Below are positions 12,131 through 59,948 of a stretch of DNA of 64,000 nucleotides, one piece after another; position 1 is the first letter of the stretch, and the number at the start of each line of letters is the position of its first letter. The notes beneath the pieces were generated by a model. That model did not search any database. It was not told where the DNA came from and saw only the letters and a list, made by a program, of their open reading frames with translations. Origin of the DNA: Pomacea canaliculata (taxonomy: Eukaryota); NCBI RefSeq assembly GCF_003073045.1, contig NC_037594.1:13301353-13365352 (forward strand), written 5' to 3'. The translations under genes and the position numbers were made by a program.

Positions 12131-12147
12131 GCAGCAGCAACAACAAA
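12074..12147. repeat. (CAA)n microsatellite of ~22 units, degenerating into (CAG)n
   Basis: Read directly from the sequence. It gives rise to the poly-V 'ORF' at 12058..12249 on the opposite strand. Confidence 0.95.
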
Positions 12148-24480: not shown

Positions 24481-25069
24481 GTGAATGCCATGCAACAGGC
24501 AGTCATGGGTTTTCGTGTCAGTTAACCGACACTGTCTACTGACTACAAATGATCTGTTGCAGCTACTTAAGAAGACGACACCTTGTACTTTTGCTTTGGC
24601 AGGCTGCAAGCTCTCTGCGCGTGGTGATTGGCTTACACGCCCAGGAACACTCATCGAACCTCTTTTCTGCGACCGACCTCTGTCCGTCATGTCAACTTCA
24701 TTAGCCTATCAATCGCGCATGCCCTTCCGAATCAGGCTGGGTGTACACGACATTTGATCTTGCCTGGAGAGATAACCTGTGTTGGTAGAAAATTACAAAA
24801 GTGTCGCAAGACTGAAATTATAATGTTATCTGAAATGTTACAAATGTTAACTGAAATGCACCAAGGTTAATATCGTATTCTAAGACCGTCTCAGTGACAT
24901 ACCACAGCTTGGATATCACGGAGGAGAAGACTGCACTCACAAGTAATCTGTAGCAGTCCCGCGACTGCGTTTCCCTGACGAGGACATCCAGAACTCAGCA
25001 GAGAACCACGTGACTTCAGTATTGACAATCTGCGCCACGAGTCCCTCGCCGAGACTGGAACCCTGGTCA

Positions 25070-25868
25070 ATGCTTACCACCATGGCAAGTCTGGGGGCCG
25101 GGCGAGACTCTGGCAGCCCGCTGCCCCTTCCCCTGGCATTGACCACCGCAGAGCGCCGGCACTACCACCTGCATCCTAGTCATCACCATCATCATCACCA
25201 CCATCATCACCAGCTGCTGGCTTCACCCTACGATCCCATCCGGCGCCTGGCATTGGCAAGGCTGCCTCCGCCCCGCCGTCCGGTCGCCAACAAGCCCTTC
25301 ACGTCCTTCTGCATCAAGGATATCCTGGGTGGCGAGGTGGACAAGGAGGATGTGGCCAAGCTGCAGGCGGGACAAGGCAGCAGCATCGCCACCTCCGCCA
25401 GCAAGTCGAGGACAGCGTCGAAGAGCGGAATAAATAAAAATAGAGGCCAGACTGCCAGTGGCAACATCATTAACAACAACAATAATAACAACAATAGCAG
25501 CAACAGCAGTAGCATAGACAGAACTCCAATAACGGCCGCATCCCCTTCCCACTCGTACCCTCCTAATCTCTCCCCCTCCGCTCGCATCCACGTGTCGGCC
25601 GTCAGTGTCAACGGCGCGCGGATCGTGCGACCCTGGGCACCCAGTCCCAGCAGCCCGGACACCGAGATCTCGTCTGACGACGGTGGCGATACGTATCAGG
25701 ACATTGACAACGATGACGATGATGACGAGGAAATCAGCGTGGACGACGACGAGCCGTCCCCCAGGCTACGCGCCGCTAAGACCGGCAAGTCAGGCGTGTC
25801 GCCGCTCGATGCCCTCATGGCCATGACCAGCAAGACCTTCGAGGGACTCGAAACACCAGACGCTGCAG
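25070..25868 (+). CDS. Lbx: Lbx (ladybird-like NK homeobox) exon 1: N-terminal region with eh1 motif, His10 tract, poly-Asn/Ser tract, acidic block and the Lbx 'MTSKTFEGLE' motif. It ends at donor CAG|GTAACC in phase 1.
   Basis: An open frame runs from ATG 25070 (MLTTMASLGAG...). A second in-frame ATG at 25082 has a stronger Kozak context (ACCACCATGG). The 'M' that the ORF track places at 25010 is a GTG and is not the start. 'NKPFTSFCIKDILGG' matches the eh1/Groucho-binding motif at the LBX1 N-terminus ('NKPLTPFSIEDIL'). 'LDALMAMTSKTFEGLE' matches LBX1 'LEELASKTFKGLE'. The donor G|GT at 25868/25869 leaves one nucleotide (G), which joins 'AC' at the start of exon 2 to give Asp and continues into '...ARRRDQAALFGKHAPPKKRRKSRTAF'. 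Confidence 0.8.
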
Positions 25869-25884
25869 GTAACCTTATATATAT

Positions 25885-25965
25885 ATACAGTGTGTGTGTG
25901 GCGAGTAGGCGCTTTATAAATGCCTTATTTACTATTACTTATTATTATATTACATCACACACAGC
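25885..25965 (+). mobile_element. 5'-truncated copy of the same SINE-like family ('ggcgctttataaatgccttatttactattacttattattat'), immediately downstream of the exon 1 donor
   Basis: It shares the GCGCTTTATAAAT core plus the (ATT/TAT)n tail with the copies at 21685, 39465, 7875(-), 19160(-) and 51695(-). Confidence 0.4.
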
Positions 25966-28900
25966 TTGCTGGTGCTGATTTATTACATCACAGCGGGTGC
26001 TATTGACTGTGTCGAATTATAGCGAAAAAGTGATGCCTGATTACAGCTGAAACATACCATTGATGATTAACTGTATCATAAATGTTACAAAGTGATAAGT
26101 GATCATGTCACAAATAGCATATATGTAATACCTAGTTTCACCAGAAATATCACACAAGGGATGAGCAAATTAATCAGAACTATTACACAAGAGATAATGG
26201 ATTACTCCACAAACATAGCGTAAGAGAATCTTGGTTATATACCTCAAACAGCATACAGGTCATGACATATGTTTAATTATATCACATATATCATGAAGCG
26301 GTTTTTAATTATATTACAAATATCGCAAAGAGATGCTTAATTATATGAGATATAGCACACAGGAGATGAGAGACTATACCATGAAAATATTATATAACGA
26401 TCCTTGATTACATCATGTCAGGCTTGCCTGTATGTATCATTAGCATAAAGAATACTTGAGTAGATCATTATCATAATTCAGACGTTTGGGTCTAATATTA
26501 TTGTCATAAAATCAGAATATTATATCTGAGTTACAGAAAAAGTCTTACTTTTAAATACCACAAAGTAAAGAGTGGTTATCGGTTATCTATCGTCTGCGGC
26601 TGACCGCTGGCGCTTGTCTCAGTATGTATTTCACATCATTACTGTTGATAACGACAGCAAAACATGGAGCGTGCAAAACACGACCACTTTATTCTACGAG
26701 GCCATTAAGTTCTTTCATGTAGGTGGCAGAATGAGGAGTATCATCCACCTCCTTTTTAATCTTGAGTGTGAGTGTGTGTGTGTGTGTGAAACTGGTAAAA
26801 AAAAAAACAAAAAACAAAAACAGTCGAAACAACTCAATGCCATCGACATTATTTTTTACCTTTAAAAAACGCAAAAGTCATTGTAGAAAAAGCAAAATGA
26901 AACATAAACAAAGGCATGAACAAATATATATGTACACACACACACACAAGTGTGCTCACATTCATACATAAATACGACTAGGCATACACTGAGTGCATAA
27001 TTATGACTTCTTAATATTCTACAGCATTTTATAACGGTTAACGGTCGTTAATCTTGAACTTCTAAACTTTTCTTTCAAAGAAGCCAATATTCACAACCAA
27101 TCAACCGCGAATAGCCGTCAGCCAAGCGCTCTGTCAATCAAATCCCCGTTAAATGATCAGTATAAAAAATAAATAAATAAATAAATAAAAAATAAAAGAG
27201 CTAGCTAATTATACAGACGCCAAAGAAAATAAATCAGCGAATGCGTATTTATCTGCTTAACTATTGGAAATACTTACCCATCGAAGCTGCCAACCGCAAA
27301 ACAAAGTCTGCAAATTAGGAATGCTGCTAAAATGAATGAAAAAGAAACAGAAAACCAGAGTCTACAGTTGAGACTAGACGAAGAAACAAAGATTACACAA
27401 AACACAATTAATGGTTAAGCACAGGCAGGTAAAAAATGGAGGGAATTAGAATAGCCTATATATTATTTTTATGCGTGTCAGAAATGTTACGAGGCCTTCT
27501 AACAAATGCCGTACTAACAAGCGCACTTTCTCTTTTTTTCTTCTTTCTTCTTTCTTTTTCTTCTTTCTCCTCGTTTTTGCCGAATACTCACTTTGTTTTC
27601 TTGGCGGGATTAGCATGAAGGTCCACAGCAAACATCTTGATATTCAACATTTCAGCTTCATGCTGGTTTCTCTCAGAAGGGTGAACAATGAACCCTGACT
27701 GCTCGTGTAAAGGCTGAGGCAGATGCTGGAAGTAGAACTTGCAATTTTATCACAAACAATATCAGCCATTGAGGCAGAACAAAAGATACTCCAGGCTTTG
27801 TTAAGTTCCACGCTACGCACTCAATCATCATCGTGTACAGTGAACTGTTTTTGATTAACTAATGATTAATAAAACAAAAAGGTAGAGGTTTCTGTAATTA
27901 ACATGTAGTCATTCATTTCATAGATATTCAGCTTGCATACTCGCATGGGTGCATTTATACATATAAACTGATGAAATATATATGTCTATGTGTGTGTGTG
28001 TGTGTGAGAGAGAGAGATAGTCGGTATGCTATCTGTGTGTGTATGTGTGTGTGTGAATCGGTGTGCTGTCTATCTCTGGGGGAGGAATTAAATATGTGCT
28101 AGCGTACAAACGGTAGGAACCTGACTGATTCCGACCACTGTCTCATAGTCGCCTTTCACGAGGATGTGAAAAAATGTGTGAGACAAACGCTTGTGTGTCG
28201 TGATATGTCAACCTTTTCTGACCAGAAAGAAGGAGACTCTGACAAGGTGGCGGCTTTGTCCAGGTATGCCTGATTCTCATTGTCCTCCGCTACTCGCCTC
28301 CTCAACTCCCTCCCTATTCACTGCCACCTCCACCCATCATCCCCTCCACTTTATACATACATAGTGCTCATTCGAACAAGACGGCGTCTGGATTAACGAT
28401 GTATGATGGTAAGAAGAGCGACTGGCGTAATATTTTCAAACAGGCCTTTATTGGCAGGTGAAATGGCTTAGGCGGGTAAGCATCAAAAAGTGAGCATCGG
28501 TGCCTAGGAGTGAAACTAGTGGTGCAGATCGTATCGGAGCAGCAGCGTTACGACCGCCCCTTATCCTCCAATCTTTATTGCTTACACAAGACAGGTTTGA
28601 ACTGCTGACGTCGGGTAATGGCGACAGGCCGGGCTTGCAGGGCCTTTTCACTCGCTCGTTAATCTGTGCGCGACCAGTCGATACACTGTGCTGACTTTTA
28701 TACGCATCTGCTTTCTTCTTCCCATGAAACTACATTTTTTTAAGTGCTCGTTTAAAAGTCAGCCTCTCTCTTGAAAATAAAAGCGAGGAGATCAAGTCTA
28801 ACGCCCTTTAAAAATTGATAAATGGGGGCCGCTTTATATCCTCCATTTTCAAAAGATCTCGCACCAAAGGATTTTTGTGGCATTGCTAGACGTCTGTAAT

Positions 28901-31112
28901 AATGATAGTTTTTCTTGAGTATGTGAAATATATAGTTTAGCACTTACCAACAGTGTTAGTAAGCATATATAACGGTTATCATAAATAGTGTGTCTATATG
29001 CTGGAGAGAATACTTCAACGATTTGTTAGGGAAAAAATGCGAAGAATGAAAAAGAACGATAGAAAAATTGCACACACGCACAGATGCATATCAGCACAGA
29101 CAGTTATGGAGTCTCCGTATCCCATCTCTCTCTCTCTCTCTAGAATACACACGAAAATAATCACCTATATGCACTCGTACAAAACTTGATGGTAAATCGA
29201 TGTACACACATACACATATGCACCATCAAGCGAGTGTTTGGGCCTAACTGCTCACAAACGTGGGTAGAATTGTAGAAAGACTGGTGAACGCGCCGTGAAC
29301 CCAAGCTCACTTGCTTTCGCTATCAGGCTCATGCACATACACGCACACATCGCTCACATCTTCACTATCATCACACCCTCTTTCAACCTCTCTTTTAATC
29401 TCTAACTCTTTCTCTCTCTTCTCCCTCTCCCCCAAACGCTAGTTTCTCATACACATAGGCATAATAATGTTTATGGTTGTGCACCGATATCTGTGTATGT
29501 TTAACAAGTATGAGCGTTCAGACATGTTTGTTTTTAGACTCTACCTTAGAATGCATTTTTATGCGATAAGCACAATTTGGACTAGTACTAATACTTCGAC
29601 TGGCGTCAGGATTAATGTGTCCTTTGTCTTTTTAAATGCAAGAAAACTTCCCGTGCAGACTTTAGTATACACAGTTTTAATTACTACTACCTATTTTCAT
29701 GCAGCTGTCCAGGAATTTTCCTGTTTGGAACTTATTATCATATTACAGTCTAGAATGTTTTATCAAATAATAAGTTAATGTGTAAAATCAAAATCGAAAT
29801 TTATATTCTTTCTCCACCTCCTGCTCACCCCCGGCGTTGAGTGCCTAACTACCTTCTCACAAATCAACTGCAGCATTTTGGCAACACAAACTTTCACGCA
29901 ACGTGCTGACAGACGACATACTTTCCGCTGCTTTCTCACCAAAACCTCAACTTTTTTTCTTTTAAAGGACGATGCGGGGGAGGAGAGGAGTTGAGGAGTT
30001 ATGCAGCTTTGTCTGTCAGTTTACTTTATCAGCTTATCCAAATCCATTCATTCATCTACCCATCTGTGTATCAGTATATCTGCTCTTCTTTTTTTTGTTG
30101 TTGTTGTCAGTTTGTTTTTGTCTCTGTTTACAGGAGTTTATTATAGGTTGATTTACAAATATTGGCAACAAACATCTTCTTCAAATAGAATGGTTTTCGG
30201 AATCATATGCTGTATGCTTTATGTCTTTTTTTTATTTTTTCGTAGAGCAGAGGACACTCTCCATTTTAATAGACAATAAAGAGTTTTTAAAAAAAAAAAA
30301 TCAGCGTGGTAAATCTGCGTTTGTTTCATGTATTTTAAAATTTTATGTAGATGCTTATGGATCATAATGACATGAAGCTACAAAGTTCTAGTAAGTTAAT
30401 ATGGTAATAGTTCGTTAGAAAAATACAGAATTTTTAATTACTCGTTTATTTTTCTTAGAAAAAATTCTTACCGATGACATCACTGAAGGCCGCAGTCAGT
30501 GGGCGATAGTCCAGTCAGCGAGCTGACATATGGGAAGTTTCCAAAACCTAGAGGATTCAATGTTCAAAAGTTTGTATCTCCTTAAATCAAGATGTTTCCA
30601 CTGAGATTTCTATTAGTAGTGGCTTTAATATCGAAACTCACTTCCAAACAATATCTTGCACTCGGGTGTGTCTTTAAATATTGTCTAGTCTTTTTCGTTT
30701 GGTTGGGATTGTTTTGAGACAGTCTATTTGATATAAAAAAAAAAAGATAGACTAAAGATCCTATTAGCCTGAAAGTCTACGCAATGTTGTCTGCATTCAT
30801 ACATATTTAAAACACAGACGCTTTACTTGCTCACGCTGCATTGTTCTTTGCTTAAGTCGGTATTGTGAGACCTTTAAGACAAAAAAATTTAGCAAATGAC
30901 TGTGGGTTGATAGAAACAGCCATGAGTAAAAAAGAATGGCTGATGCCACAGCAAAAGTGCAGCTGTAAGGCGAAAAAAACCCTTTGTTTTTCCGAATTCA
31001 CGAGAATTTTAATGGTTACGCAAAATACCTGCGTGTATGAGACATTTTAGCGGAATAAAACTTACATATATATATATACCGGTGTACAATCAGTAATCTT
31101 AACTGTATAAGA

Positions 31113-31152
31113 CAACAACAACAACAACAACAACACAAAACAACAACAACAA
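31113..31152. repeat. (CAA)n microsatellite, interrupted
   Basis: Read directly from the sequence. Confidence 0.9.
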
Positions 31153-34100
31153 CCCACCCACCCCCTCCAACACACTCGCATGCAAAACAACAGGTTGAGA
31201 TAAATCGAGTGCACAGATGGTTTAATTGCGAGAGTAAAGCGAAACAAACCCTATTGGTAAATTCTAAGGCAATGGCGAGATGCTGATTAAAGTTACCAGG
31301 CGCTGACCGCTGCGGGTCATCAACATACGCACTCATGTCTGACTCCATCCGAAGAGCAGAAGCACTCAACGCCTGCAGTACAGTCGTCAGACTCGGACAA
31401 ACACGACGTCAGACAGACGCAGTTCTGTCGGCATGTGAGCGTTTCCACCGGCATACCAGAGCCGAAAGTCGGACAAAGAGTTACGTGAACAGGTGTGACA
31501 AGACCCGTGGCCTCGTGTACCTGGTGTTGTGACGTCTCTCCACAGACCACGTGCTTACAACGTTTGGCGTTGTGTTTTTGTCGCACAGTACGGTGGTGCC
31601 TAGCACTCGGGGCCTGCAGATCACGTTCGTAAAGCGCATGCAAGACAAATGAGCTGAGACAGTCCATCCATACCGTCTGTCCATCCGACCCAATTTCATG
31701 TTCCCGCTCATGTTGTGTATGCAGGGCGGGCGGGCGCGCGCACACACACACACACGAGAGAATTTTTGTAAAATAAGTTTTTTAAAGTGATGGAGTGACA
31801 CAAGAATCTCCTTCAACCTATCGATCGTCTGCTTCAGGGCGAGCAAACCGCGCGCAAACGTCCGACCCTTACGGACCTTACATCTCCTCTGCATATCCCT
31901 CTGGACGCCGTGTGGAAATGCTCTCTATGCCGCTTTAACAGACCCCTTCGCCGTTTAAACACCAGGGCGAAGGGCAAAAACACAGAAGCAGAACGGAAAG
32001 GGATTGAAAAAATTTACATCTGAAACGGCTCTTCCGTCTTGTAGCCTCGCGCAGCCCAGCGACAGCTCATTATACTTAATTCAAAGGCAGTGACAGCGGC
32101 TTGTTAAGTATGTTGTTGGCAAAAAGGAGCATGTTGTCGAGGAGCGGCTTAAATTACCTGCTTTACGGTTGGGGCTGTCAGCGCTCAACATGAAGCTTGC
32201 AGGTGAACGCACGACTACCTGGTATGCTGTTACATACTTCACGCGTTTACGCTTGCGCACACGCGCCTACCTAGACGCACACGAACACACACATGTGCGA
32301 ACGTAAAATGAACATATACACGAAAAACACCCTTTTTTCTCCCCTGAGCAAAGTTTGTGTATGCCCAGTAGATTTCTTTTGTCTGCCTTCGTTTCCCTTG
32401 TCTCCGTCTCTGACGGTGGGTCTTTGTATTTTTAGTGTATGTGTCTGTCTGCATCACTCTTTGTTCATTTCTTTCTTTCTTTGTCTTGACAAAGACACGT
32501 CCTCGTTAGTGTCTGTGTCGATGGTTTGCGTGATAAGCACGTGCTGGCGTCGGCGCCGCTCGCTTGCTCTCACTACAGGTGGCAGTGACAGGTGCATCGA
32601 GTGCATCCCCACACGCCGCGCACGTCTGCGCAAGACAAGTCTATTGAATGAAGAGACAAGCCCGTAGGACGGAAGTGAATACACGCCAAGCGCTTTGTCG
32701 CCACTGCGCCGGACTCGCTCTCATCCTTGTTGACATCGGTGCACGGGGAGGGAGGAGGAAGGGTGAAAGAGAGAGGAAGATGGGAAAATCAAAAGAGATC
32801 GATACAGAAAAAGTAAAGCTTACGAGCTGGAGGCAAATGTCGCGGTGACATGGTGAGCAGACCACGACTGCCTTTTTGCCGATTTGCAGCCTGTCTCACC
32901 AGACATCTGCATAAAATGCTATCAAGATGGGGTGGCGGTAGGATGTCTTGAGCCCAAGAAGTCGCTAGTGTGCGCCCCACATGGTTGTTCTGTCTGCGGG
33001 TTTGTTTCGTCCATCCCTTTCATCTTAATTACGTCTTTTTCCGACCTTGTAACGTCTACATAAGGTCTCGATGTACGTCGGCCATCAATCATCATTCGTC
33101 AACCAAGCTCTCTCATTACTTGTCCTTCTCGTCAAATCCTCAACCTTATCACGCTGACACGTCTTTCTTTCTTTCTTTTCTTTTAGTATAGTCGAGAAAG
33201 TAAAGAAAGAAGAAAAGAAGAAAGACGAAGAACGATGACTGTTGCGGAAATTTTTTTAAATGATCCAAATGAATGTTATGCTTGATTACACGCTGTGTGA
33301 ATAAGTATTGTTAGTTTGTTCTTCGGTTTTTGCAGACTTTCATAACTTTAATTAATATTTCGAAGTATGTGATGCCTATTAAACAATGGGCAGTCTTTGC
33401 GCTGATGTAATTACGCGTATAAAGGCTTGTACTGGTAAATATTACTAGATTACACACACGGATGTGGTGACAAAATGTTTACAAACCACGCGTAAAACTG
33501 AGTTATTCATTTTTGTAATACCAAAGTGAGGCGAACTCAATCTCAAAAATTGAGCTGTGCATCACATGACACTTGGAGGTTGGTCGAGGGGGCCATCTGC
33601 TGTAGTGCCCACCTTCATCATATGGGTTGAATCTTAATCAGTTAATTACTGCGGCATGTCAAGACCCCACAAAATCGGTGTGGAATCCAAGGTATCTTTG
33701 TGCCGGGATGAGTGATCAAGGCGTGGCAATCATCTCATCGTGACATCCGTCAGCATACCGAAAGCCTGCGATATGGTCTGTCGACACGCTCTTGTCACAA
33801 CTGTCCTCGGTGCAACCGTGATGTTAATGATGAAAACTGATTAAGATATCTGGTATCAGCGACATGCCTATTGCTTATCTATCCATCTGTCTCCGTGTTT
33901 GTCTGTTGGTCAAGTGGATTGTTCTGGCCTTATGGTCAGGAAGCTATAAAGTATAAAATTTGAGATGCTAAGATTTCGACCTTCTTAACTACGGAATATA
34001 TTCCAAAGTCACATAAGGACGACGACAACGAGCCACTACCATCGCGACAGAAACGAATAAACCGGAAATGCCAATGTTTGACAAAACAAAAACAAAAACT

Positions 34101-39464: not shown

Positions 39465-39550
39465 TCTTTTGTCTTTGTAAATCGCTTGAGATAACCTTTG
39501 ATGAAGGAGTAAAGCGCTTTATAAATTCACTTTATAATTACAGGATGTCT
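39465..39550 (+). mobile_element. 5'-truncated copy of the SINE-like family ('aatcgcttgagataacctttgatgaaggagtaaagcgctttataaattcac')
   Basis: It shows the same bipartite tail, 'cgcttgaga' followed about 25 nt later by 'agcgctttataaat'. Confidence 0.4.
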
Positions 39551-45500: not shown

Positions 45501-48500
45501 CGGAAAGATGTGTATACGACAGAGAAACAGAACACTTCTTAATAATCACATGTCTAAAACTTTTTCCCTTTTGAAGATAATTACTCCCCTCTCCCCCCGC
45601 AGATAAAGAGCTTTGACACAAGACACAAGATGGCCATGAAAGTGCAGATTATGAAGAGGGATTTAGTAAGGAAGTCCCAACATATCAAAACCAAAATATG
45701 ACAGGAAGAGGGTGGAGGAGTACAGAAACCTGACTCATTCACTGATGAAGCTTCATTGTTGAGTGTTTCCTTCAATATCCACAATCTCAGCGAGTATAAA
45801 AATAAACCACTATTGATGACAGTCATTCTTTTGCAACAAATATGAGTGCGAGTAATCATTTATTACTACATACCAGCATTAATATTCTTTTCTTATCCCG
45901 TACTAAAAGAAACTTGTATACGGTCTAAACTCATAACAAAATGGAGGGCGAGAGATGAGGGTGTGTGTGTGGGGAGGGGGGGGGGTTCAGACAAAGAGAG
46001 AAGCATAGAGACGACAAACAGATACGAATGGGAAGTAAGAAGAGTAATTACAAGTGGCGTGGCTTTAAAGGGGGCAGCAGCATGGACTACATGACGAACG
46101 CATGATGGATGTGTCTTTGTCTGCTCGGCGCACTTTGAAGTGTGTTGCGATGCATGGACGTTGTTGTCCTCAACCCTGCCAGCTGGCCTGTGGGCTTTTT
46201 CCCCGCAGGGCCATGCTTCTGATTCATGTTAGTGTCATCGTTAAGGCTGCTATACCCATCCTCTTAAACACAATCCATTGACCACAGTACACACGGCACG
46301 CAGCGCTGCTTGTCTGTCACCAAAATGAACCTAGAGATCTTTTCCAAATGGATCATTTTGTTCTACTATTTTACTTCTGTCTTTAAAAGCAATTGTCCTT
46401 TGCTAAACTTTGAAAAGACTTCACGATTTCACATATAGCTTGATTCTCTAATTCATTCGTCTTTCTTTCTCTCGCGCTTCCTTTTTTTTTTCTTCTTAAA
46501 CATATCATGTTCAAGAAACGTTCAGTAGACCACCACTAGCAGCAGTACGAACAGTCATTTTTTTTAAAGAGGAAGGTTAGTTGTACCTCACGCTGCATGG
46601 CTATAACTTCTTTCCCTTTTTTTTTCTTTGATGCAAAGTAAATAAAATCTTTCCCCTTCATTCCTCCGGGGAGAAGACCCTGGCTGTTGCTGCTGCTGCT
46701 GCGAAACCTATTTGATGCGGAGAATGGCTCACAGCTTATCAATTCCTCGACTCTATCGCACGGCTTAGAAATTCCTGAACTGAACTAAGGGAGATCAGGT
46801 TGAAAAGAATTTTTTTTTTCGAAAACCAAGCCATTTTTTAAAATTCAGAATGCGCAGAAAAGAAAAAAAAAAAGCGAAAAATAAAATCTCTGGGGCATGG
46901 AGTAGGCACGCTGGATTAGTGACCTAGGGTCAGATATTTTACATCTGAACTGTGAAGAAGATTTTTTTTTCTTGATCTTGAGTGCATAATTTTTACCGGA
47001 CGGGGCTGGGTGGGTCATAAATTCCGAGTGCAAATAAAGAATACTGCTACTCCTGGTTGTCTTTTTTTTATATCTATTTCTAAGTGTAAAAATAAGTGCA
47101 GAATTATTGAAAACCTTAACAAATGTATACAAAATCAGAGCACTAGACTAATTAAGGTTACATTCAGAATTAGCTAGGTGGGGATGGGGAGAGAAAAAAG
47201 GCGAGAGAGGAGGGAAGTGAAAGGGACCAAGCTCTCCGGTATTTAAAAAAAAATAAAATCTCGGTCTTTGTTTCCTGCTTTTATTTTCACTCCAAGGACT
47301 TGCACACTTTTCTCATCACGGAACTCCCACCCCCTTCATGGTAGACATTCGTTTGAGCGGCAGTACGTCAAGCGAATCAACTGGATTACGTCTATTTGTC
47401 TGTTGTTGTTTTTTTTTCTCGCGCTACCTCACCTTCTTTTCTTTCTTTCTATCTTCAGCCTCCTGCCTTCCTTTCTTTCAAAAATCCCGATCTTTGTCAT
47501 AAAACGTGCGTATGCGCGTGCGCACGCACACACACAGAGAGAGAAAGGATACAGCCCTCTCGACATTTACGCGCCATAAATACGTGTTTACGCGGTCTAA
47601 ACCCGTGTTTCCTCTGTCCTTAAACGCACCTTGCCGTCAGGGGGCGCTCATCTGGGCGACTGAGCAGCGCAGGACGTTGGTCTCACAGCCCCGGAAACGA
47701 CTGGACCACAATATTTGCTCGAGGAGTCTTTCTCCTTTCCTCCCTCCCTCCCCTCTTCTGAAATACGACCTTGGCTTTCACTTTTCGTCTGCTCGTGCCA
47801 CGTAGGGTTTTGCGCCAGACAAGGTAGTCATTTACGTCTGAAATCCCCATCATCATTAAGGCAGAAAATTACACGGCATGGCCTCCTTGAAGTCGCTATC
47901 TTAAATCTACAGCCGCCATCGTTTCTCCTATTTTATGTCAACCCTCCAGATGCAAGGGGCTCTAAATATTATTCGTAATCATTTCTCTCAGTTCAGTTGT
48001 TGGCGTACTTTCTTTTTGCCCTGCCATCCGCACAAGCGTCAAGGACTGTTCCATTTCTGCAGTAGTCTTAAAAACACCAGGCTTCTGCGGTGGTCCCCAT
48101 TCGTTGCCACGAAAATTAAAAACAACGAACTGGAAACGCTTAAAAAAAAAAAAAGAGGAGCACAGATTTAAAGGAACGTCAGCCTGCTATTGCGCTTGTT
48201 GTGTGTATGTGTGAAAGGGTTGGGGTGGGGATGGAACGGTAAGTTGCGAGGAAAATGTTTGTTTTATTGTTCCTTGGTGACTTAGTGTAAAGAGGTAGGG
48301 GATGAAAGCCGACGGAATATTCTGGTTCAGTGAGTGTGCAGACAGCTGCGCCGTTTCGCGCCCTCGCTGTCACGTATACGCATAAGCCTATAAGCCTGTC
48401 TTTACAAGCACCCAAGCTTGTCTACATACGTACCCCAGTCTGACTTGCATACACAACACAACCTCAACATACGCGAAAAGGGGAACGCTTTTATAGCATA

Positions 48501-49717
48501 TGTAAAAGTGAATGCTTTATACTTATAGCGTATGTAAAAGAAAACGCTCTATGACGTGTGTAAAAGTGTGAACTTAAAGAGGACCTTCAAAAATGCAGAG
48601 TATCAGGAGAACAAGAACAAAACCGATATAAAGAAATTAAAGTTAGAAACTATGAAAAGAAGCTACTTCTTTAAAATAAACACATAAAATAATGAAGTAA
48701 TGCAAATCGGACACAGACGGAGGAAACCGAGGAAGTGCTAATGTGTGCTTTTATCTCTCGGTATCTAGCGACACATGCTGTGGGCTTGAGAGAGATAGTG
48801 GCAGCAGAAGCAAGAATTCAAGTATTGGCCTCCTAGTGAGATGAATCGTGTCATTAATGTGTTGAAATGACGGCCATGGCTGATACGTGCTGATAATAAT
48901 GGTCTGTCTTACCTATAGACCTCACGGAAAATCAGCACTTCCTGTGAGCACTGATAGTGAGAGAAAATATTGCTTTCTGAAAGAGTTCTAGCTGGGAGCT
49001 GTACCATCAAATCTGCAGAGATAAGGCCAATAAATTATGATAACGCAATAAAACTCATGTCATTTGAATTATGATTTGCCCATTTTTGCGCAATAAAACG
49101 TGCATCACATTGTAGAGACATTTTGCATGCCGCTGGCCGGGTGAGCAGAGTAGGGTTTGTGCTACAGCATCGAGTCACATTGGCAACAGCCAACAACTGT
49201 ATCCTGGTGGGGGGACAGGCTTAGAAACACCGAGCATCACACGCTGACGAGAAGAATGGATAAAGGAAGCGGTAACTAGATGGAGCAAAAGACTACCCGC
49301 TCTGCCATTTTCGCGCACTATTTTAATAGCGTGTATAAAGACATTGAAAATATGCATACATAGTTCGAGTTCCACTAGATTGCAACGGCTAGAACTGATT
49401 GATTGGAAAGTTCTAGATTCTAGAATCACAATCAGAAGACACCAATTGATGACACGGATTTTGCCGATTGAAGCATTAGTGTTTTTAGTATATAAATGCC
49501 GACACACGAAGTTCAGTCTGATACGATTGTTAATACAAGAGTTGTATGCCTAATTAACATATACTTGACTTGGCTGTTGAAAACTAGACAAAAACTAAAT
49601 AAAGAAAATTAATTAAAAACAACAAAATCTCTTTTTTAAAATAATAACCGTAGCAATTTTATTAACATATTTAGAACGTTGTGCGAAATTTCGTTTTGGG
49701 TTTTAGGAAGCCGTCAT

Positions 49718-49720
<3 letters not shown>

Positions 49721-49749
<29 letters not shown>
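49721..49749. repeat. poly(T) homopolymer, ~29 nt
   Basis: Read directly from the sequence. Confidence 0.95.
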
Positions 49750-49755
<6 letters not shown>

Positions 49756-51694
49756 CCTAGACTTTCCATCGTCCAGAATAACAATGAAGCAAGAGAAAGC
49801 CCTGTGTTGTCTTCAACTGAGTTCATACATAACGACACAAAGATAGTTCTTGGTAAAGTATTTGAGCTGTGCACATTTATGCCTTTCTCAGCTACATAAT
49901 ACTTTGTTACTGATCATATTCTACAGATATTTTTGTCAATCAACAGTTTGACTATTATCTTATCTGAAAAATACCAATATTTTCTTTTTACAGTTGGGGA
50001 GAGGGTGTTTTCGTTAGTTCACAGGCAGGGGCTTCCTGAGTTGGCTGTCTCGCTACATCTCACACCTTTATCAGGTGAAAAGGTGTGCAAGGAACACTGG
50101 AACCTGTTAAAATCGATTTATAACGAGAAAGGTGCGGAAAGCTCCTGCCATCTCTTTGGAGGAGAAAATAACATACACACTGACGTCAAAGAGCACAAAC
50201 ACAGCGCTGATGTTTTCTTGTTTAGTGCTGAGATGGACTGATCTTTTTTTTTGTTTTCTTTGCTTATCTTTCGGTCTTCCTACTGTAACAGCAAGTTTTC
50301 TCGTTGTCTTCTTCCCTTTGTTGCATTATCCCTTTCGTCTGTGCTTTCGCTCCTTCTATACCTTTAATCTTTTTTTAATGTGTGTGTGTGGAGGCGTATG
50401 GTGTGCACGGGTGCAGGTTTGTCTATTGTGAGTTTTTGTATGATGTCCCTTGTTAATTAGAAGAGCAACACCTTGTTGGCCTGACAACGATTTATTCAGA
50501 TGAAAAAAATGAGGGTTCATTCGGAAATGACTTTGACTCCACAAGGCAAACAGCTGTGTAAGCTTCCCATGGAAACGCTTATGCAAAAGCAATGCCCTCG
50601 TCAGGTAGCTGAGGCCATACATTACCCATTAGCAGTTTTCCTATGCTCCCCTTGTCACCGGACTGGTGTTCTGCAGAAATGGGCGCAGGGCGAGTCAGTG
50701 GGGCCTTCGACAGGAAATAAATATGTGAGCAGTGTCGGAAATGAAGGTCCGAGATAGGGGCTAGCGACGGGTAGCCGGGGTCTGTACTGCACTGTGATTA
50801 TCCCACTACACTCGCGTGCCAGGCGCCCCACCCACCACTCCCGACAGGACCAGATGAGGAGTATGCTAAATGAGGATGAATCGCGTGTGTCAAGACAACC
50901 CGCCAGTCTTATCTCGGAATTCGAATCATGATGAAGCCAAAATGAGGGTGATGGCATGTTGCTGAGTCCTACCGTAGCTGTTATCGTTATCGTTAAACTT
51001 GTCTTCTCTCCTGACGAAAGCCGTAAACGGCATGTTTTAGAATACCTTGTAACTCTCATTCCTCTTGTTGTGCTAAACAAACAATGATGGAGGCAAAAAT
51101 CCACTATCGTCTGGCTTATAAACTGTCTTTCCTTCCTTTACTCACAGGACTTTATCGGGGACATAACAACCTACTTGCCTTTATCGCTGGCAATTGTGTA
51201 TGATCAACAAATTTAAGGTCAAATGCTTTCTACATCTTACATCGGAACAGTGAGGTTTTAAAAAAAGAAACAAGCAGGCAGTCACAGAGCCATGAAGGTA
51301 AGCCTTCAAGTGAGTCAGACGTTGACTCGTGCACGACACGTGCAGCCGGTGTTGTGGAACGTCTCGTGTCGAATCACGCTGTTGTTAGATGATGAAGACG
51401 CTGGCTGGCGCTCAGTTGCGGCTGGCGGATGCTTCTGCTCCGGCTATGATGGACGTTGTGCCCAGCTCGCAGGACGTGGTCAGGCGCTCCTCACTACCTG
51501 TGTTTGTGTTAAAACAAACAGCTACCAATAGCACGTGCCGCTGGAGCAACTTGCAGGTCATGCTGTGCTTGTTTTCCATCTTCGTTGTTTAAATAGAATT
51601 TTTTGAAATTTCTGGCTGATTAGTAGTTTGAAAGTTAAGAAAACTGTGTCAAACAGATTTCGTTATGAAAGATGCTGGTAGCCAAGTTCTCTTG

Positions 51695-51780
51695 CACAGA
51701 AACAGCCTCATTATCTCTATTTTAATAATGATTATAATCATAATCATAATTCATCAGCATCATCATCGCACTTTACAGTG
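51695..51780 (-). mobile_element. Diverged minus-strand copy of the SINE-like family (reverse complement 'catagcgagcactgtaaagtgcgatgatgatgctgatgaattatgattatgattataat')
   Basis: The architecture is similar (gcgag...cactgtaaagtg plus a trinucleotide tail) but it is more diverged from the other copies. Confidence 0.25.
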
Positions 51781-54700
51781 CTCGCTATGATTTCCCCTCC
51801 CCACCCCTAAAAAAATCCACACATGCATTAACAGAAACAATAGTAAAAAAACCCAACTGACAATGCGCTATATATTTTTTTTTCTTTTGCGTATCTTTCT
51901 TTCCGTTTTATACGTTCTTCCTCCTCTTTCCTTTTTTCTCGCTTTAATCATCTTTTGATAAATCTGTCTTAAGTAAGACCCTCTTCCTCGCAAATATTCA
52001 GATCACCGATGCACACAGCCCGAAAGGTATCCTTTTGATAAATCCGGCAGTGACAGGTAACAAGAACACCGTCTCGCCACATGAAAAGCAGCATATAAAG
52101 AAGTATATATATAGTTTCACCCTCAGGAGCCAACGCCAATCTCCTGCGAGGATCTTAGGCAACCAGGCCCGTGTGTCTGTCGTCTCGCTCTAGTCCATAT
52201 TGTAGAGAAGGATAGGATGTCGGAGTTGGGTTACCATGGATAGTTTCACTCCCTCCGCTAAATCTCTCTCTAAACTGGCTGATGCTTGGTTTTAAGCTCG
52301 TATTCTCTCATTCACCCTCTAGATTCCAGACTTGAAGCAACCAACATCCCCGTCTATTTAAAAGTGCCAGCACTTAGCTGCTCAAAACTGCAGAAGTGTT
52401 TTTGTCTTAACCTTCTGGTTTCTGGCAGATACATTCCCTTCGAGATGTGGGGTTTTATTACCCCTCCTATTTGCATTAGTAGGCAATGGATTGTGCGTCC
52501 CTTTCAGTCTGGATCCTCTGTGATCTCCTATTGCTATCCACACATGAGGACAAAGACTTCCGCACGATGTTTGGTTGTTTGTCATATTATAGCTTTTTAG
52601 CATTCAAGGTATTAAATATTAATGGTCAAATATAAGTGAAGGAGCATTGCTCACATGTTCTCTGAAAAGCGTATGCAGCGCTGATGGAGTGAAGGTAAAA
52701 CGATAAAAATCAGTTTTTAGGAAAATCAGCTTGGAAAAAAGTCTTAGCCTTTGTCGGTCATCCATCTTAGCTCTTCTTTCCCTCTCGCTTGCTGCCTCTA
52801 AAAGCTGTTAGGACGCGTGAATCTAAGAGGGGGAGCACCGCCAACAATATACCAACACCTTGCACAAGGCGGCGGCGGTGTATGTGGCGTGGGTCCGGCA
52901 GGTTTCGTACCACTATCGGCACTCGTAGGGAGCTTGTCTGTGTCTAGCGAAATAGGGAGGCAATTAAGTGGTTTTGAAATGTGATCTACACCACGCTGGA
53001 GACTGGTCTCAAACACGGCAATCAGAGTAGCTCTTTGCACTGTTATTCTCGTCACCTGCTACTTCAACACCCACGCACGCAGACATACGCACACACGCAC
53101 GTACTCGGCCAGCATGCAAGAAAGCTACAGCGTCAGACTTGACACAACAGCGAGGCAGGGAGTAAAGCCTGGCTCTGCGGGAGCCGTTACGAGAAACCGC
53201 TGCAGGACGTCTAAGAGTTGTCAAGTCGCATGTTGTTGTTAAATGGATGCCCTCCCTTGCATTGTTTCACTGACACATGACAGAAATTCAAGCGGAGAGA
53301 TTAGCTAGGAGTCTAAGAGCAACGCGGTTAAGAGAGAGAAAGAGCGAAAAAAAAAAAAGAAAATTATTTTGTTGGAGTGTCTAAATGCAAAGGAACCCTC
53401 TCTCTCGGGGGTGGGGAAGTGAACACTCACTGTGGCCAGACATGCTTTGGTGACTTCAAATAACAAAAAACTTTTTTTTCTTAAAATTCCTTTTGCTGTA
53501 TCAAAGATTATTTTTATTTGTTTTCATTGTTGTGCTTGTCTTATCGTCAGAATATAGAGGTGTAAATTTTGCGGTAATCTGCGAAGAGGAGTAAAAAAAT
53601 CTTCAGCTGAGGGGATTGTGTGTACAGTCGTGGCATTGTCGGAGCAGAAATGGATCTTACATTAAGAAATGTTTGGTATGTTACGAGATAATAACTGATA
53701 ATAAGACTAAAATGAAAATATGGTGGCCAAGATGAAGATTGTTCTTTCTTGTTATAAAACATTTACATAATCTTTTACTTTGTGTACTTGCCTGAATGAT
53801 ACTGGGTACATAGAAATCTGTAATGCCTCATATGTTTGCGATTCCTCATTTTCGTGTCTCAAGCAACATCGTTTAAGCCTTGTTATCAATCCCGATGAAA
53901 ATTATTATATTCCAGGTGTTATAGAATCTGATTTTGCAATTTATATTCTTCTGTATAAGGTACAGTGACTTGAAAAAGAGGTATATTTTAAAATGTATCC
54001 AATATTTGTCAGCTTTTCTTTTATTTTTGTCACTAGATAACAGTAATAGGAGTGCGCCTATTAATGTGGTCAAATACCTCTCTGAAACTTTCGAGGTTCG
54101 CAATTTAAATTGAAAGCTATTCATCACCGCAGGCTTAATCTTTTGTTTCCCTGCTTATTTTTACGAATACTCTCTGCTTGTATGTGTGTGTATTTATGTA
54201 TATGTGTGTGTGTATATATATATATCTGGGTATTTAATAACAATGCTGATTAGACGCAGAGAGTATAAAAATAGTAGTATTATATATTTATGAGACACAT
54301 CTATAGGCGATAGTAACTTGTGATACACTTTGATTTTGTAATATTCTTTTTACTCTCTTGAAATAGGTCTAAAGTTCAGATTCAAATTTTCTTTCATACC
54401 CTCTCACCTCATCTGACAAAATGTCTTACAATATTATTTTTTATTCCAACTACGTGTTTTCTTTCTCATATTGCCAGCTAATGCTTATTTTTTGAAAGCA
54501 CACTGAAGCTCCTTAAATTTGGGGTTGCGCGTCAGATTCGGACACAAAAGTTACCTTTTAATTTATTAAATTATTTATTTAATATATTAATTTGAACTAA
54601 ATTTCAAACGCACCTTGTCAAAGACCCTAAACAAACGTTTGGTGTTAGCATGCCATTTATGTCGGTTCCACCGAAGAAGCAGTTTCAGAAAAGGCACCTC

Positions 54701-55289
54701 AGTTGTCCGAAGCAACTGATAGAGAGGTACCAAAAACAATCATGTTTACACAATGGTCACATTCTTTTCAAACTTTGAAAAGGAGTCAAAAAGAGAGGGA
54801 TGGATAGATGGAGAGAGAATAAGTGTGTATGCCACTTAAAGTAATGTTGAGCCATTAGTAATATAGTCAAATACACGAAGAGGTATTACACTTTACCTGC
54901 TGTAAACGCGTTTAATAACTAAAATTAGTATATATATACACACACACATACAGATTAAACGTAGATAGGCAATTTTATCTGTTAAAATCTGAGGTTGGTA
55001 GTGTTGCTTGAAAATGATATACTCAAGAATTCCATTCCCGTTAATTTCAGCCCCTTAAGCTAAAATGTTAAAAGCGAAAATATATTTACACACGTCCTTC
55101 AAGATGATTCGTGGTCGCTTTCATTTACTTCACTTAGATTCCTTACTTCTTTCAGTCCCCTCCTCCAGCTATTCGACAACCATCCGAGCCAACAAACCAA
55201 TGAACCCACCCAACCATCAGTACCATGTCGAAATGAAATCTCATTATCATCGCAAATACGTGTAAAAATTGTATTAAATATTTCGCAGG

Positions 55290-55605
55290 TAGAGAAGCGC
55301 TGCATGTGGGTTCAAAGCGCTGCGTGTGGGCCGTATCCCGTCTCCGCTATAAGACGCGAGGTGGCGGGACAAGGTGCGGCATGGCGCACGCGGAGAGGCT
55401 GCCGTGTGGTCGCACGGCGCAGTAAACCGGCCGACGTCGGAAGGCTGATCAAGGACGCGCACCGGTGCCGGCTCATTAATTCACATAATCGTCCGCCTTG
55501 CGTGGCTCCGATGTTGCGATAAGGCCGCAAAGCGGTAAGCTTTGGTCTGACCCCAGAGAACCGACGCCACGGCCCTTACCGCGAAAAGGGTCCGCTTTAT
55601 GACTG
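55290..55605. promoter_or_regulatory. Intronic CpG-rich block ~3 kb upstream of exon 2, with a direct repeat 'aagcgctgcRtgtggg' x2 (55296..55330) and the TAAT pair 'cattaattcacataatcg' (55474..55491)
   Basis: It stands out in sequence composition from the surrounding AT-rich intron. The paired TAAT cores are typical homeodomain-binding sequence. Confidence 0.3.
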
Positions 55606-58340
55606 ATTTTTTTTTTTTACCTCCTCTCAGAACAGCAACGTGCACTAGTTATTTTTACTGCCCTAGATGGCAGCCTTTCATACTATTTGTAACTGCATCC
55701 TAGTTCAGAGAAATATCTGATCGTCACGGCATTAAATTTTTAACAGTTCACCATATTTTGGCTCCCCCTTTGTCCTGGCGAAATTTACGACGCGAGCAGG
55801 GAGGTGAAATATATGTAAATGGGTATTTCCAAGTTGATGTGTATCAACGTGGGTAGCGGTGTCCGCTTTCAGATTTTGTTTGGGGGGGGGGTACTTGCCA
55901 CATACACTCTATTATTGAACAAGTCCCCCCACCGTACGCCTTAAGATGCCACCTTTCTCTCGGCCACTAACCCGTCCACCATGTGCCTCACCGACCTCAC
56001 CCAGTGCCGACTAGGCGACCACAAAGCTTCTCTCATACTGGTTCTGGTTATTAATCTCGTCACTTCGCAACACTAATCTCTCCAAGAGTGGGGCTATACA
56101 TGGCTGAATAAAGAGATTTAAGGGGGACAGGCCTTAGAGGAGATATGACTAAGAGAAAATAAATTAGCCACACACATTTTCTCCATCAGATTTAAGTTTG
56201 AACCCTTTGTGTATCATCGTTCAAAAGTAGAAATTGACTCTCTCTACGCGTCAAACCTTGTAATTTTTTTTCGGTCCTCTCGTTTTTGTTTTTTTTTTTT
56301 TTTTTTTTTTGTCATAACAAGACTATGCACTCTGTAATGCTGACAGAGCCTTTTGTCCAGATACAAACGTTTGCGATTGAATGCGCAAAACAATAAAACA
56401 ATAAATAAATAAAATACACAGTGTTGACACATTTCGAGAATTTTCCTCGTTTTGCAAATCTGCAGTCGAAGTTCCGAAGGCACAAACGTGACACATTTCC
56501 TTATAAGACATGAAATCATTGTAAAAGAAAGGATTCTTGCATCTCCCGACAGAGACATGAAATAACGTCTTGTTTCTAGAAGTTCTCAGCTGTTGTGTGA
56601 CTCTGTGGTCATTCATAATTTAGCTCAGTGGTGCAGCTCAGCAGCGGCCATTCATAACTGAGTGGCTAGTCAAGATGAAATGCGACTGCAAGGGGCCCCT
56701 GGTCATCTGACGGTGTGCCTTGTGACCACATTATTGAATTATCCTCTTTCTGGGACTGACAAGGTGATTCTTGCTACATCTGGGGTCAGTTCAGTCAAGA
56801 CTTCCTTTTGGCTTTCATCGCCAAAGTTAATTTCCTACCTATTTCCTTTGGGAGAGAGAAGATGGCGGTGAATGGACACTGTGTCCAGCCACTCATTTCA
56901 AAGCTCTACTGATAGCCTGCGGATAGCTACAAATCTCCCATTCATGACTAAAATGTCACTGACGACATTGTGTTGCAATTACTAAATCTATTCTCTAGAG
57001 GTTTTTTTTTCCAAACCCACATGACACGTGTTAATCACGACAGTGGTGCGCTCTGTTGTTATGTTTCCTAGTCGGGTACAGACATCGTAAAGGAGGGAGA
57101 CTGTGGAGACCCTAACTCCCCACACCCCCAACGCTAATTTGTTTGTCGTCGCGAATAGAATGCAAGAAGCAGGTGGTGCGAGTGATTGCTTTTAATACCG
57201 GCCACACCTGATGGTGGAGGAGGGATGAACAGGGGGTCTCAAGGATTTAATGTATGGTGAAACAGAAGCCGAGTGAACTAAGGGGCCTGCAAATGTCTTT
57301 CTGTCTATGGAGCGGAGGAGGATGAGGGAAAGAGGGCATAAGACCATACGCCGAGATCTCTGCTGTCAAGACACCCTGTAATTACTTCGAGAAGACCACC
57401 TGACCAGGAGGGCCTTTGAGGTGTGAAGTCCGGTAAACCGAGTGACTCTTAGGCATAACGACACAGACCACACTGGGTGTTCTGACTCCCACTGACCTCC
57501 GCCTTTCTCCCTCACTTGACTTACGGCGTATGCTATTACCAGCGGGCACAACGACATCAAGCACATAGATTCAAGGGTCACTCTTTAATGCCTGTCTAAT
57601 TCCGCCAGCTGGCGAGGACTTTGACCACGTATTCACCTGTTTCATAGAAGTTGTTTGACACTCGTCACACTTGCGATGTCAATGGGAAATGGAAAGCAGC
57701 CACACGCTTCAAGTGTCTCTTTATGTGCGTATTTTAAGGCTAGACTATGTAGTGGCATAAAAAAACCTACCAAACACCAAGAAGCAAGCGACATTCTAAA
57801 CACATTCTTTTACATAGATCATCACGTTTTCCGAATATTACTACTGCTACTACTAGTAGTAGAAGAAGATCAAAGACAGGTCATGTGTACATACAGTGGG
57901 ACTAGGGGAGATAGTGGAACAGAAACCAGTGTTAGCCATCTGAGAAAAATTTGCAGTGATGTCACGTCTAATCAGCGAAACCAAGGAAAGTAGCGTCGCA
58001 TGTTGCAAGCGATACACGAAGGTGTTGACTCGCTTCTCGGTTGGAGAGTGGGCGTTTCGCCATACATTAGCATAACAGGTGCACTCAGTCACATCTCTCA
58101 TCCCAAAGCAAAGAATGGTAATCAGATAAATTGAGTTCAGCGCGTTTCTCAATTTGCACCGGTATCGGATGTTTTCCTTCAATCGGTCGCAAGTGCACCT
58201 GTGAAGCAAACAAGATTTGTGACCTATCACCGATACACCACTAGTATTATTATTCACATCGAAAGTACTCTCACCAAATGGAAAATCACAGCTGGAAAGA
58301 AGACTTTCCCTTCTTACTCTCACTCGGCCCTGAGCACAAA

Positions 58341-58385
58341 GAAAGAAGAAGAAGAAGAAGAAGAAGAAGAAGAAAAAAAAAAAAA
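58341..58385. repeat. (GAA)n microsatellite followed by poly(A), ~280 nt upstream of the exon 2 acceptor
   Basis: Read directly from the sequence. Confidence 0.9.
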
Positions 58386-58669
58386 GAAGAGATTGAAAGA
58401 AAATAGGAAAAAAAAAAAGGAGGAAGAGAGGTTCATACTTTTTTTTAATACTTTATTCAAACCTTATTCTGTCAGTTCATCAGTGTATGGGCAATTAGCT
58501 CCTAAATGTTTTATTACAGGCCTTGCTTCCCCGCTCGGCTTAATTAAGAATTCTCTTGTAATTGGCCCAGCCAAAGCGCGTGATCAGCGCACGCACTAGT
58601 CCGCGTCCGCCCCTCCCTCTTCCCTGAGGCCCTTGGCCGTCGTTTGACGCATCACACTCTCTGTTGCAG

Positions 58670-58857
58670 ACGCCCGGCGACGCGACCAGGCGGCGCTGTT
58701 CGGCAAGCACGCGCCGCCCAAGAAACGGCGCAAGTCGCGCACGGCCTTCACCAACCAGCAGATCTACGAGCTGGAGAAGCGCTTCCTGTACCAGAAGTAC
58801 CTCACGCCGGCAGACCGTGACGAGATCGCACACAGCTTGGGGCTCACCAATGCACAG
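58670..58857 (+). CDS. Lbx: Lbx exon 2: pre-homeodomain basic region plus homeodomain residues 1-44 (RRKSRTAFTNQQIYELEKRFLYQKYLTPADRDEIAHSLGLTNAQ)
   Basis: The acceptor is ctctctgttgcag|AC at 58669/58670. The translated sequence is near-identical to the first two-thirds of the LBX1/ladybird homeodomain. The donor is CAG|GTACAG at 58857/58858 in phase 0, falling between homeodomain positions 44 and 45 (Q|V), which is the conserved NK-like intron position. Confidence 0.92.
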
Positions 58858-59249
58858 GTACAGCATCGACCCTCAAACTCAGTCGTTATTGTTTACTGTC
58901 GTATGATAAAATAATAAAAGAAAATCGCCAAACAACCCCCTCTCTTCAGCAAGAAAGAATACTGCATGTCTCCCCGTTTCTGTATCTGTGCAACAATTTT
59001 TCCGACTGTGTCACTAGATGCTGTTTATTGATAAATGTCAGAAAATATATGGGAGATAAAAGACTGAATCATATAACTGAAAACGCTTATGAACAATTCA
59101 AAACCTCAAACGCAAACCCGTTTGCCACTTTTGTTATTAATAATAAAGTTTTTATTTTTAGAAAGTACATTTTTAATATGACAAGAAATACTTGGTGCTG
59201 AATGCTGACCTCTACTCCAGCTAAAGGAGATTTTTTTTTGTTTTGTTAG
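58858..59249 (+). other. Lbx intron 2 (392 bp, phase 0, at homeodomain position 44/45)
   Basis: GTACAG...TTTGTTAG boundaries, AT-rich interior, pyrimidine tract before the acceptor. Confidence 0.88.
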
Positions 59250-59948
59250 GTGATCACGTGGTTTCAGAACCGACGTGCAAAGCTGAAACGGGACCTGGAG
59301 GAGCTGAAAAACGACGTGACGGCTGCCCGCAAACACCCGGTGCACAAAGCGTTAATGGGTACAATGGCGGAACTGCAGCTGCGCAAGGTGCACAGTGACG
59401 TGCTCAAAAAAGCCGCGGCAGCTGCGGCGGCGGCAGAAGCTGCGGAGGGCAGCGGCAGCAGGAGCGGAGAGAGAACGCTGCACGTCGAGGACGGCCGCCG
59501 CCGAGATTCCGCAGCGACGCCGCCCCCCTCGTCACCGTCGTCGTCTTCAGCCACAGGACCATCCCCCTCCCCCTTGCCGTTGTCTTTGACCACGTGCAGC
59601 GCGCTCTCTCCCAGCGCCAGTTGCCACAGCAACAGCAGCGCCAGCCATCTCAACGGCGGCTGTCTGCGGTGCGGGTCCACCTCGCCAACTGCTGTGGACA
59701 CAGACACCGGCAGCAAGCTGAACTCGAGCGAGAAGGCGATGGACGCCAGTTCCTGTGCTGACTTGGACAGCGCGGCTGGCCGCAGGTTTGTGTCGGACAA
59801 CAGCCCGCAGTCGCTTGACGGGCAGGAGCCCGAATCAAGGGCGCAAGAGGACATGGACACCTCCAACCCTACGGACTGCGAGGGTAAGAGGACGAGTATG
59901 GAGGACGAGGAGAGGGACAAAGCCTCACCCAAAACTCACGACTCTTAG
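59250..59948 (+). CDS. Lbx: Lbx exon 3: homeodomain helix 3 (VITWFQNRRAKLKRD), the conserved post-homeodomain LEELKNDV motif, a poly-Ala run, a Ser/Pro-rich acidic C-terminus and stop TAG
   Basis: The acceptor is ttttgttttgttag|GTGATC at 59249/59250. 'VITWFQNRRAKLKRDLEELKNDVTAARK' matches LBX1 'VITWFQNRRAKLKRDLEEMKADVESAKK'. Total CDS length across the three exons is 799+188+699 = 1686 nt, in frame, ending TAG at 59946..59948. Confidence 0.92.
   Translation: MITWFQNRRAKLKRDLEELKNDVTAARKHPVHKALMGTMAELQLRKVHSDVLKKAAAAAAAAEAAEGSGSRSGERTLHVEDGRRRDSAATPPPSSPSSSSATGPSPSPLPLSLTTCSALSPSASCHSNSSASHLNGGCLRCGSTSPTAVDTDTGSKLNSSEKAMDASSCADLDSAAGRRFVSDNSPQSLDGQEPESRAQEDMDTSNPTDCEGKRTSMEDEERDKASPKTHDS

Follow-up and report, generated by a model that had tools for sequence, protein, structure and literature searches.

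The stretch of Pomacea canaliculata DNA considered here (contig NC_037594.1, positions 13,301,353 to 13,365,352 of the forward strand; 64,000 nucleotides (nt), hereafter the window) carries on its forward strand a homeobox gene of the Lbx (ladybird) family, whose exons, introns and protein motifs are collected in Table 1. We are highly confident that the window contains one intact, single-copy Lbx gene of a caenogastropod mollusc, with three coding exons and a homeobox of the ladybird class, in the NKL subclass of the ANTP homeobox genes. The gene is an ordinary Lbx; what is new is the sequence itself, whose exact protein is absent from the collection searched, and a comparative point on the intron that interrupts the homeobox.

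The spliced coding sequence has 1686 nt and encodes 561 amino acids (aa), with no internal stop and no frameshift. A script that searched all GT/AG pairs near the junctions returned the same exon borders and nothing else, and the reading frame is lost when the acceptors are moved by one base. Direct reading and the splice-site script agree with the preliminary description in the exon borders, in the phases 1 and 0, in the lengths of the coding sequence and of the protein, and in its statement that the "AC" at the start of exon 2 restores an Asp codon; its word "complete" holds for the coding sequence and reaches the coding part of the gene only. The ATG at 25070 is the first one behind an in-frame stop located 29 codons 5' of it, and a start at this position matches the N-terminus ML(G/T)TM(A/S)(S/T)(L/F)GAGRDS of three aligned caenogastropod orthologues, from Batillaria, Babylonia and the Logan assemblies. 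Exon 1 encodes a tract of ten histidines, the eh1 (engrailed-homology 1) motif, an Asn/Ser-rich low-complexity stretch, an acidic stretch and the Lbx N-terminal block, while exon 3 encodes homeodomain residues 45-60, the LEELKNDV motif and a long Ala/Ser/Pro-rich C-terminal tail.

Table 1. Features of the Lbx gene; positions are counted from the first letter of the window, and a slash marks an exon-intron border.
Feature	Position	Strand	Description
Coding exon 1	25070-25868	+	799 nt; aa 1-266 and first base of codon 267; donor CTGCAG/gtaacc
Poly-histidine tract	25181-25210	+	10 His; aa 38-47; read directly
eh1 motif FTSFCIKDIL	25298-25327	+	aa 77-86; predicted Groucho/TLE-binding repression motif
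Lbx-family N-terminal block (VSPLDALMA)MTSKTFEGLE, VSPLDALMAMTSKTFEGLE	25796-25852	+	found by tblastn; contains the SPLDALMAMTSKTFEGLE block
Intron 1	25869-58669	+	32,801 nt; phase 1; GT..AG; split codon G/AC = Asp267; 19 residues before homeodomain position 1
Coding exon 2	58670-58857	+	188 nt; acceptor ctgttgcag/ACGCCC, donor GCACAG/gtacag; linker DARRRDQAALFGKHAPPKK and homeodomain residues 1-44
Homeobox, part 1	58726-58857	+	homeodomain residues 1-44; aa 286-329
Intron 2	58858-59249	+	392 nt; phase 0; GT..AG; T-rich tract; between homeodomain Q44 and V45 (CAG/GTG)
Coding exon 3	59250-59948	+	699 nt including TAG stop 59946-59948; acceptor ttttgttag/GTGATC
Homeobox, part 2	59250-59297	+	homeodomain residues 45-60; recognition helix VITWFQNRRAKLKRDL
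LEELKNDV motif	59295-59318	+	begins at L345 (homeodomain position 60) and extends 7 residues past the homeodomain

The homeodomain occupies aa 286-345, in a numbering anchored on W48 (W333), and Pfam detects one Homeodomain in the protein (PF00046; aa 287-343, E=1.5e-21, 76.4 bits). Direct reading, tblastn and alignment locate the eh1 motif FTSFCIKDIL, the MTSKTFEGLE block and LEELKNDV at the kind of place that had been described for each of them. In an alignment of 16 Lbx sequences the eh1 residues T78, F80, I82, D84, I85 and L86 are invariant, as are D344, E347, K349 and D351 at the LEELKNDV region, and P245, L246, A248, L249 and K255 of the N-terminal block are unchanged from fly to fish. 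Two low-complexity runs of exon 1 also recur in the orthologues: histidine-rich stretches of other lengths stand at the corresponding place in caenogastropods, and the Asn/Ser-rich run NNNNNNNSSNSSS, encoded at 25469-25514, has Asn/Ser-rich counterparts of other lengths at the same place. Since the places are the same and the lengths differ, these runs are fast-evolving regions.

A protein search over 5.8 billion sequences gave 309 matches, of which the best 120 are led by Lbx-type proteins. The best match, from Batillaria attramentaria (63-65% identity, 82% of the query covered), has E=2.4e-168, which excludes a chance match; it is followed by a Logan-assembled protein (P0002) and by LOC143294327 of Babylonia areolata. 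Behind the caenogastropods come "LBX1-like" proteins of heterobranchs, LBX of bivalves, Platynereis Lbx, and LBX proteins from arthropods, echinoderms, amphioxus and vertebrates (LBX1/LBX2); no identical or near-identical protein is present in the 5.8-billion-sequence collection. The homeodomain is identical to that of Babylonia at 59/60 positions, of Mytilus at 58/60, of Platynereis at 57/60, of amphioxus at 56/60, of teleost LBX1 at 55/60 and of Drosophila simulans ladybird early (lbe) at 52/60; the few differences from vertebrate LBX1 mentioned in the preliminary description amount to five of 60 positions for the teleost protein.

Many database matches bear other names (MOX-2-like, B-H1, engrailed-like, HMX3), which could suggest membership in another NKL family, such as Tlx, Nk1, Barhl, Gbx or En, with no more than a resemblance to Lbx. 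However, these erratic names are automated labels on proteins whose alignment contains the same Lbx-specific blocks, namely eh1, (S)PLDAL..(S/N)KTF.GLE, the homeodomain and LEELK.DV, common to fly, amphioxus, fish, annelid and mollusc sequences. Moreover, an 83-aa query covering the homeodomain region reaches 122-169 bits with the Lbx proteins of annelid, amphioxus, fish, frog, starfish and fly, and no more than 68 bits with any one non-Lbx homeodomain in PDB (such as C15/Tlx, GBX1, BARHL and NKX2-5), a row of 81 bits being left out of this comparison as it is a tandem engrailed fusion. The scores against Platynereis Lbx, LBX1 and lbe are thus about twice those against the best non-Lbx homeodomains, and the Lbx-specific intron position described below is also present in the window, so that membership in another NKL family is extremely improbable. 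The ladybird identity first proposed for the gene is borne out by the best matches, by both flanking motifs, by the bit scores and by the 55/60 identity to LBX1.

A neighbour-joining (NJ) tree of the conserved region places the window gene inside a caenogastropod clade, here called Lbx-A, with 98% bootstrap. The gene is the "A" copy, orthologous to Batillaria BaRGS_034216 (P0001) and Babylonia LOC143294327 (P0003). These two proteins have an overall identity of 57-65% to the window protein and have in common with it the N-terminal start, the His-rich tract, eh1, the acidic stretch, the Lbx block, the homeodomain and a long Ser/Pro-rich tail, but their low-complexity regions differ in length and sequence. 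The Babylonia gene also has three coding exons, and its introns match those of the window in position and phase, although they measure 78.7 kb and 1.7 kb and have no detectable non-coding similarity to the window. Vertebrate LBX1/LBX2 and Drosophila ladybird early and late have eh1, PL(D/S)AL..KTF.GLE, the homeodomain, LEE(L/M)K.DV and the phase-1 intron before the homeobox as in the window, but they consist of two coding exons with an uninterrupted homeobox, their intron measures 0.25-2.7 kb and their proteins have about 280-480 aa.

The exon joins were evaluated against orthologues. The alignment is gap-free over both junctions (..EGLETPDAA/DARRRDQAALFGKH.. and ..TNAQ/VITWFQ.. in all close orthologues), and exon 2 has 83-87% nucleotide identity to the Babylonia, Physella and Logan orthologues. 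When 120 Lbx-family proteins were compared with the window by tblastn, no match fell outside the three exons, and no Lbx-like coding segment was found inside intron 1, which indicates that the model lacks no coding exon. The Logan contig SRR32834839_5786 (L003, 3015 nt), from a related species, contains an uninterrupted orthologous open reading frame (ORF) of 651 aa and aligns to the window in four colinear blocks with ends at 25868, 58662/58859 and 59248, covering all three exons. Because genomic orthologues carry 33-79 kb of intron, this contig is most simply read as a transcript, and it gives cross-species, transcript-like support for the joins, short of proof in the source species.

A different reading is that exon 1 and exons 2-3 are separate transcription units, or parts of a decaying pseudogene, and that the 561-aa join is an artefact of the long gap. 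The two parts do lie 32.8 kb apart, and automated annotation sometimes splits or truncates the genes of relatives at intron 1, as in Nucella, whose model (P0084) is devoid of the entire N-terminus. Nevertheless, frame, phase and splice consensus all close; the joined protein aligns without gaps to full-length orthologues; the intron matches in position and phase those of seven exactly mapped Lbx genes; the intron-free Logan contig spans the three exons colinearly; and the 1686 nt contain neither stop nor frameshift. On this evidence, a split gene or a pseudogene is very improbable.

It could also be supposed that the three-exon model is incomplete, with additional coding exons, alternative first exons or nested genes located in the 32.8-kb intron or upstream. 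Alternative promoters are frequent in the long introns of developmental genes, the structure of the 5' untranslated region (UTR) lies outside the model, and the Pfam screen of the window took ORFs of at least 127 aa only. On the other hand, the tblastn comparison described above matches nothing beyond the three exons, the orthologue alignment has no unexplained insertion at the junctions, and the window contains no Rfam family and no tRNA, nor any Pfam domain among its 20 longest non-Lbx ORFs. Such an incomplete model is therefore unlikely, though less so than a split gene.

Several points weigh against the reading of the locus as a single intact Lbx gene. The transcript-type support is cross-species, and the status of SRR32834839_5786 as a transcript is itself inferred, as the contig may alternatively come from genomic DNA that carries a processed retrocopy; a comparison of this contig with the window showed no similarity in the UTRs. 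The model covers the coding exons, and UTRs, the promoter and any non-coding or alternative first exons lie beyond its scope. In blastn comparisons with the Babylonia, Physella, Mytilus, Patella, chiton and Nucella loci only the exons are conserved, with no conservation in introns and flanks. Finally, the 64 kb contain no further NK-cluster gene, so that synteny lends the reading no support; this absence is uninformative, because NK genes are reported to be dispersed in oysters (PMC5322547, PMC7566022).

The preliminary description drew attention to one very large intron between the eh1-bearing part and the homeobox. Its length of 32,801 nt was confirmed, but it is not a peculiarity of this locus, as the first intron is long in every mollusc checked. 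The comparison included nine Lbx loci besides the window (Table 2); exact splice maps were obtained for seven of them, and the junctions of Chanos and Nucella were read less fully.

Table 2. Introns of the Lbx genes compared; the position of intron 1 is given in codons relative to the homeodomain.
Gene	Intron 1	Position and phase of intron 1	Intron in homeobox
Window	32,801 nt	-19, phase 1	yes, 392 nt
Babylonia Lbx-A	78,657 nt	-19, phase 1	yes, 1,714 nt
Physella (L002)	47,256 nt	-19, phase 1	no
Patella (L006)	35,915 nt	-19, phase 1	no
Mytilus (L004)	18,310 nt	-19, phase 1	no
Chiton Liolophura (L007)	13,406 nt	-19, phase 1	no
Amphioxus B. belcheri (L008)	1,561 nt	-20, phase 1	no
D. simulans lbe (L009)	2,691 nt	-16, phase 1	no
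Chanos LBX1b (L011)	about 250 nt	corresponding place by tblastn, phase not determined	no
Nucella Lbx-B (P0084, L010)	not mapped, model without exon 1		yes, 1,483 nt

The window gene and all seven exactly mapped Lbx genes share a phase-1 intron that precedes the homeodomain by 16-20 codons. Its length is 13.4-78.7 kb in the molluscs sampled, versus about 0.25-2.7 kb in fish, amphioxus and fly. As the position is the same in fly, amphioxus and all the molluscs sampled, the 32.8-kb intron is the Lbx intron of the bilaterian ancestor, much enlarged in molluscs, and its size in the window is typical rather than exceptional. Physella, Patella, Mytilus and Liolophura resemble the window in having this intron exactly 19 codons before the homeodomain, in phase 1 and very long (13-47 kb), together with a nearly identical homeodomain region; unlike the window, they have an uninterrupted homeobox.

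The unusual feature for an Lbx gene is thus not the large intron, but the intron between homeodomain residues 44 and 45. This intron is present in all three caenogastropod genes (the window, Babylonia Lbx-A and Nucella Lbx-B), each time at CAG/GTG, and is absent from the seven other lineages (Physella, Patella, Mytilus, Liolophura, B. belcheri, D. simulans lbe and Chanos LBX1b). Only caenogastropods have it in this sample, for which a lineage-specific gain is the likeliest explanation; parsimony strongly favours one gain on the caenogastropod stem over at least five losses. Sequence similarity among the three caenogastropod introns was looked for and none was found, so that the origin of the intron cannot be traced.

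The same site is occupied in other families. In Dlx, Bsx and Nanog an intron between residues 44 and 45 is a family-wide ancestral character (PMC3199776, PMC3201656), as opposed to Lbx, a different family, in which it is confined to one gastropod lineage of the sample. We consider it probable that the Lbx intron was gained in stem caenogastropods at a perfect proto-splice site, CAG/GTG, before the duplication into Lbx-A and a second copy, Lbx-B, and in parallel to the 44/45 intron of Dlx, Bsx and Nanog. If true, this would be a dated parallel gain at a homeobox "hot spot"; gastropod phylogeny could then use the intron as a rare genomic character, and it could illustrate recurrent insertion at 44/45. 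The assumption that vertebrate LBX1 is split at this position proved wrong, since the intron of Chanos LBX1b lies upstream of the homeobox; two exons are mentioned for Lbx1 (PMC2446394).

The order of gain and duplication is suggested by the paralogues. Lbx-A comprises the window, Batillaria and Babylonia genes, and Lbx-B comprises a second Babylonia gene (P0012) and that of Nucella (P0084). In the NJ tree the Lbx-B pair has 100% bootstrap and joins Lbx-A with less than 50% bootstrap; His36 and the "KH" signature are common to both groups. This grouping, together with the common signatures, suggests that the gain of the 44/45 intron preceded the Lbx-A/Lbx-B duplication. Bivalves also possess a second, divergent copy, and their Lbx-2 clade (P0036, P0045, P0046, P0070; 100% bootstrap) stands apart from the caenogastropod B copies, a separation that suggests independent duplications in the two groups.

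Two observations concern these second copies. In Mercenaria, Ruditapes and Dreissena both Lbx copies are apparently on one contig. The 320-aa Lbx-B model of Nucella lapillus (L010, 10001-20059) contains neither eh1 nor the PLDAL block, both of which occur in Babylonia Lbx-B, and its first three residues come from a small exon located 7.6 kb upstream. This model is probably truncated, its true first exon lying beyond a very long intron.

As to the function of the gene, a pre-mRNA would be spliced from the three coding exons, both transcription and splicing in the source species being inferred, and the 561-aa product is predicted by homology to bind DNA sequence-specifically through its homeodomain. 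By analogy with mouse LBX1, the N-terminal eh1 motif would recruit Groucho/TLE co-repressors and lead to transcriptional repression: a secondary account reports that the eh1 of LBX1 recruits Groucho/TLE in vitro and that its loss relieves repression (10.1101/2021.08.25.457618, citing Mizuhara et al. 2005). A part in muscle or neural patterning during development can be envisaged, as can a regulatory content of the large intron. The biology is as expected, Lbx being known in molluscs, and the new point is modest and comparative. The practical value resides in a correct gene model: with 32.8 kb between exon 1 and the homeobox, gastropod Lbx genes can end up truncated or split in automated annotation, and P0084 is an example of a model deprived of its eh1-bearing N-terminus.

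Developmental homeobox genes commonly have gene-poor surroundings and long introns. In the 64-kb window tblastn found no second homeobox, and no dispersed repeats of at least 60 nt were detected. The blastn comparison with the six relatives neither supports nor refutes the idea that enhancers lie in the intron, because these species are probably too distant to show non-coding conservation. Additional blastn matches at 45935-45985, 14664-14724 and 53067-53100 were rejected as conserved elements, being GT/CA-rich low complexity.

Regarding base composition, the GC content of the window is highest where exon 1 lies (53%, versus 35-48% elsewhere and 51% in the bin of exons 2-3). A GC-rich block at 23500-26000, just upstream of and over exon 1, reaches 54-61% GC with a CpG observed/expected ratio of about 0.9-1.0, versus a window mean of 0.85, and includes an antisense ORF of 214 aa (24046-24690) that has no Pfam match. 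This block is probably the promoter and 5' UTR region rather than a gene.

The window also contains two repeats. A microsatellite, (ACA)26, is located at 12069-12146 in the gene-free region upstream. The other, at 63445-63653, is an array in which a 70-nt unit is repeated three times in tandem, some 3.5 kb downstream of the stop codon of Lbx. It holds eight of the 14 matches to CCATNTTG in the window, all on the forward strand, and the (G)GCCATCTTG cores resemble binding sites of YY1/Pho. The array could be a satellite or a transposon fragment, or else a Polycomb-response-like candidate site cluster adjoining a developmental gene.

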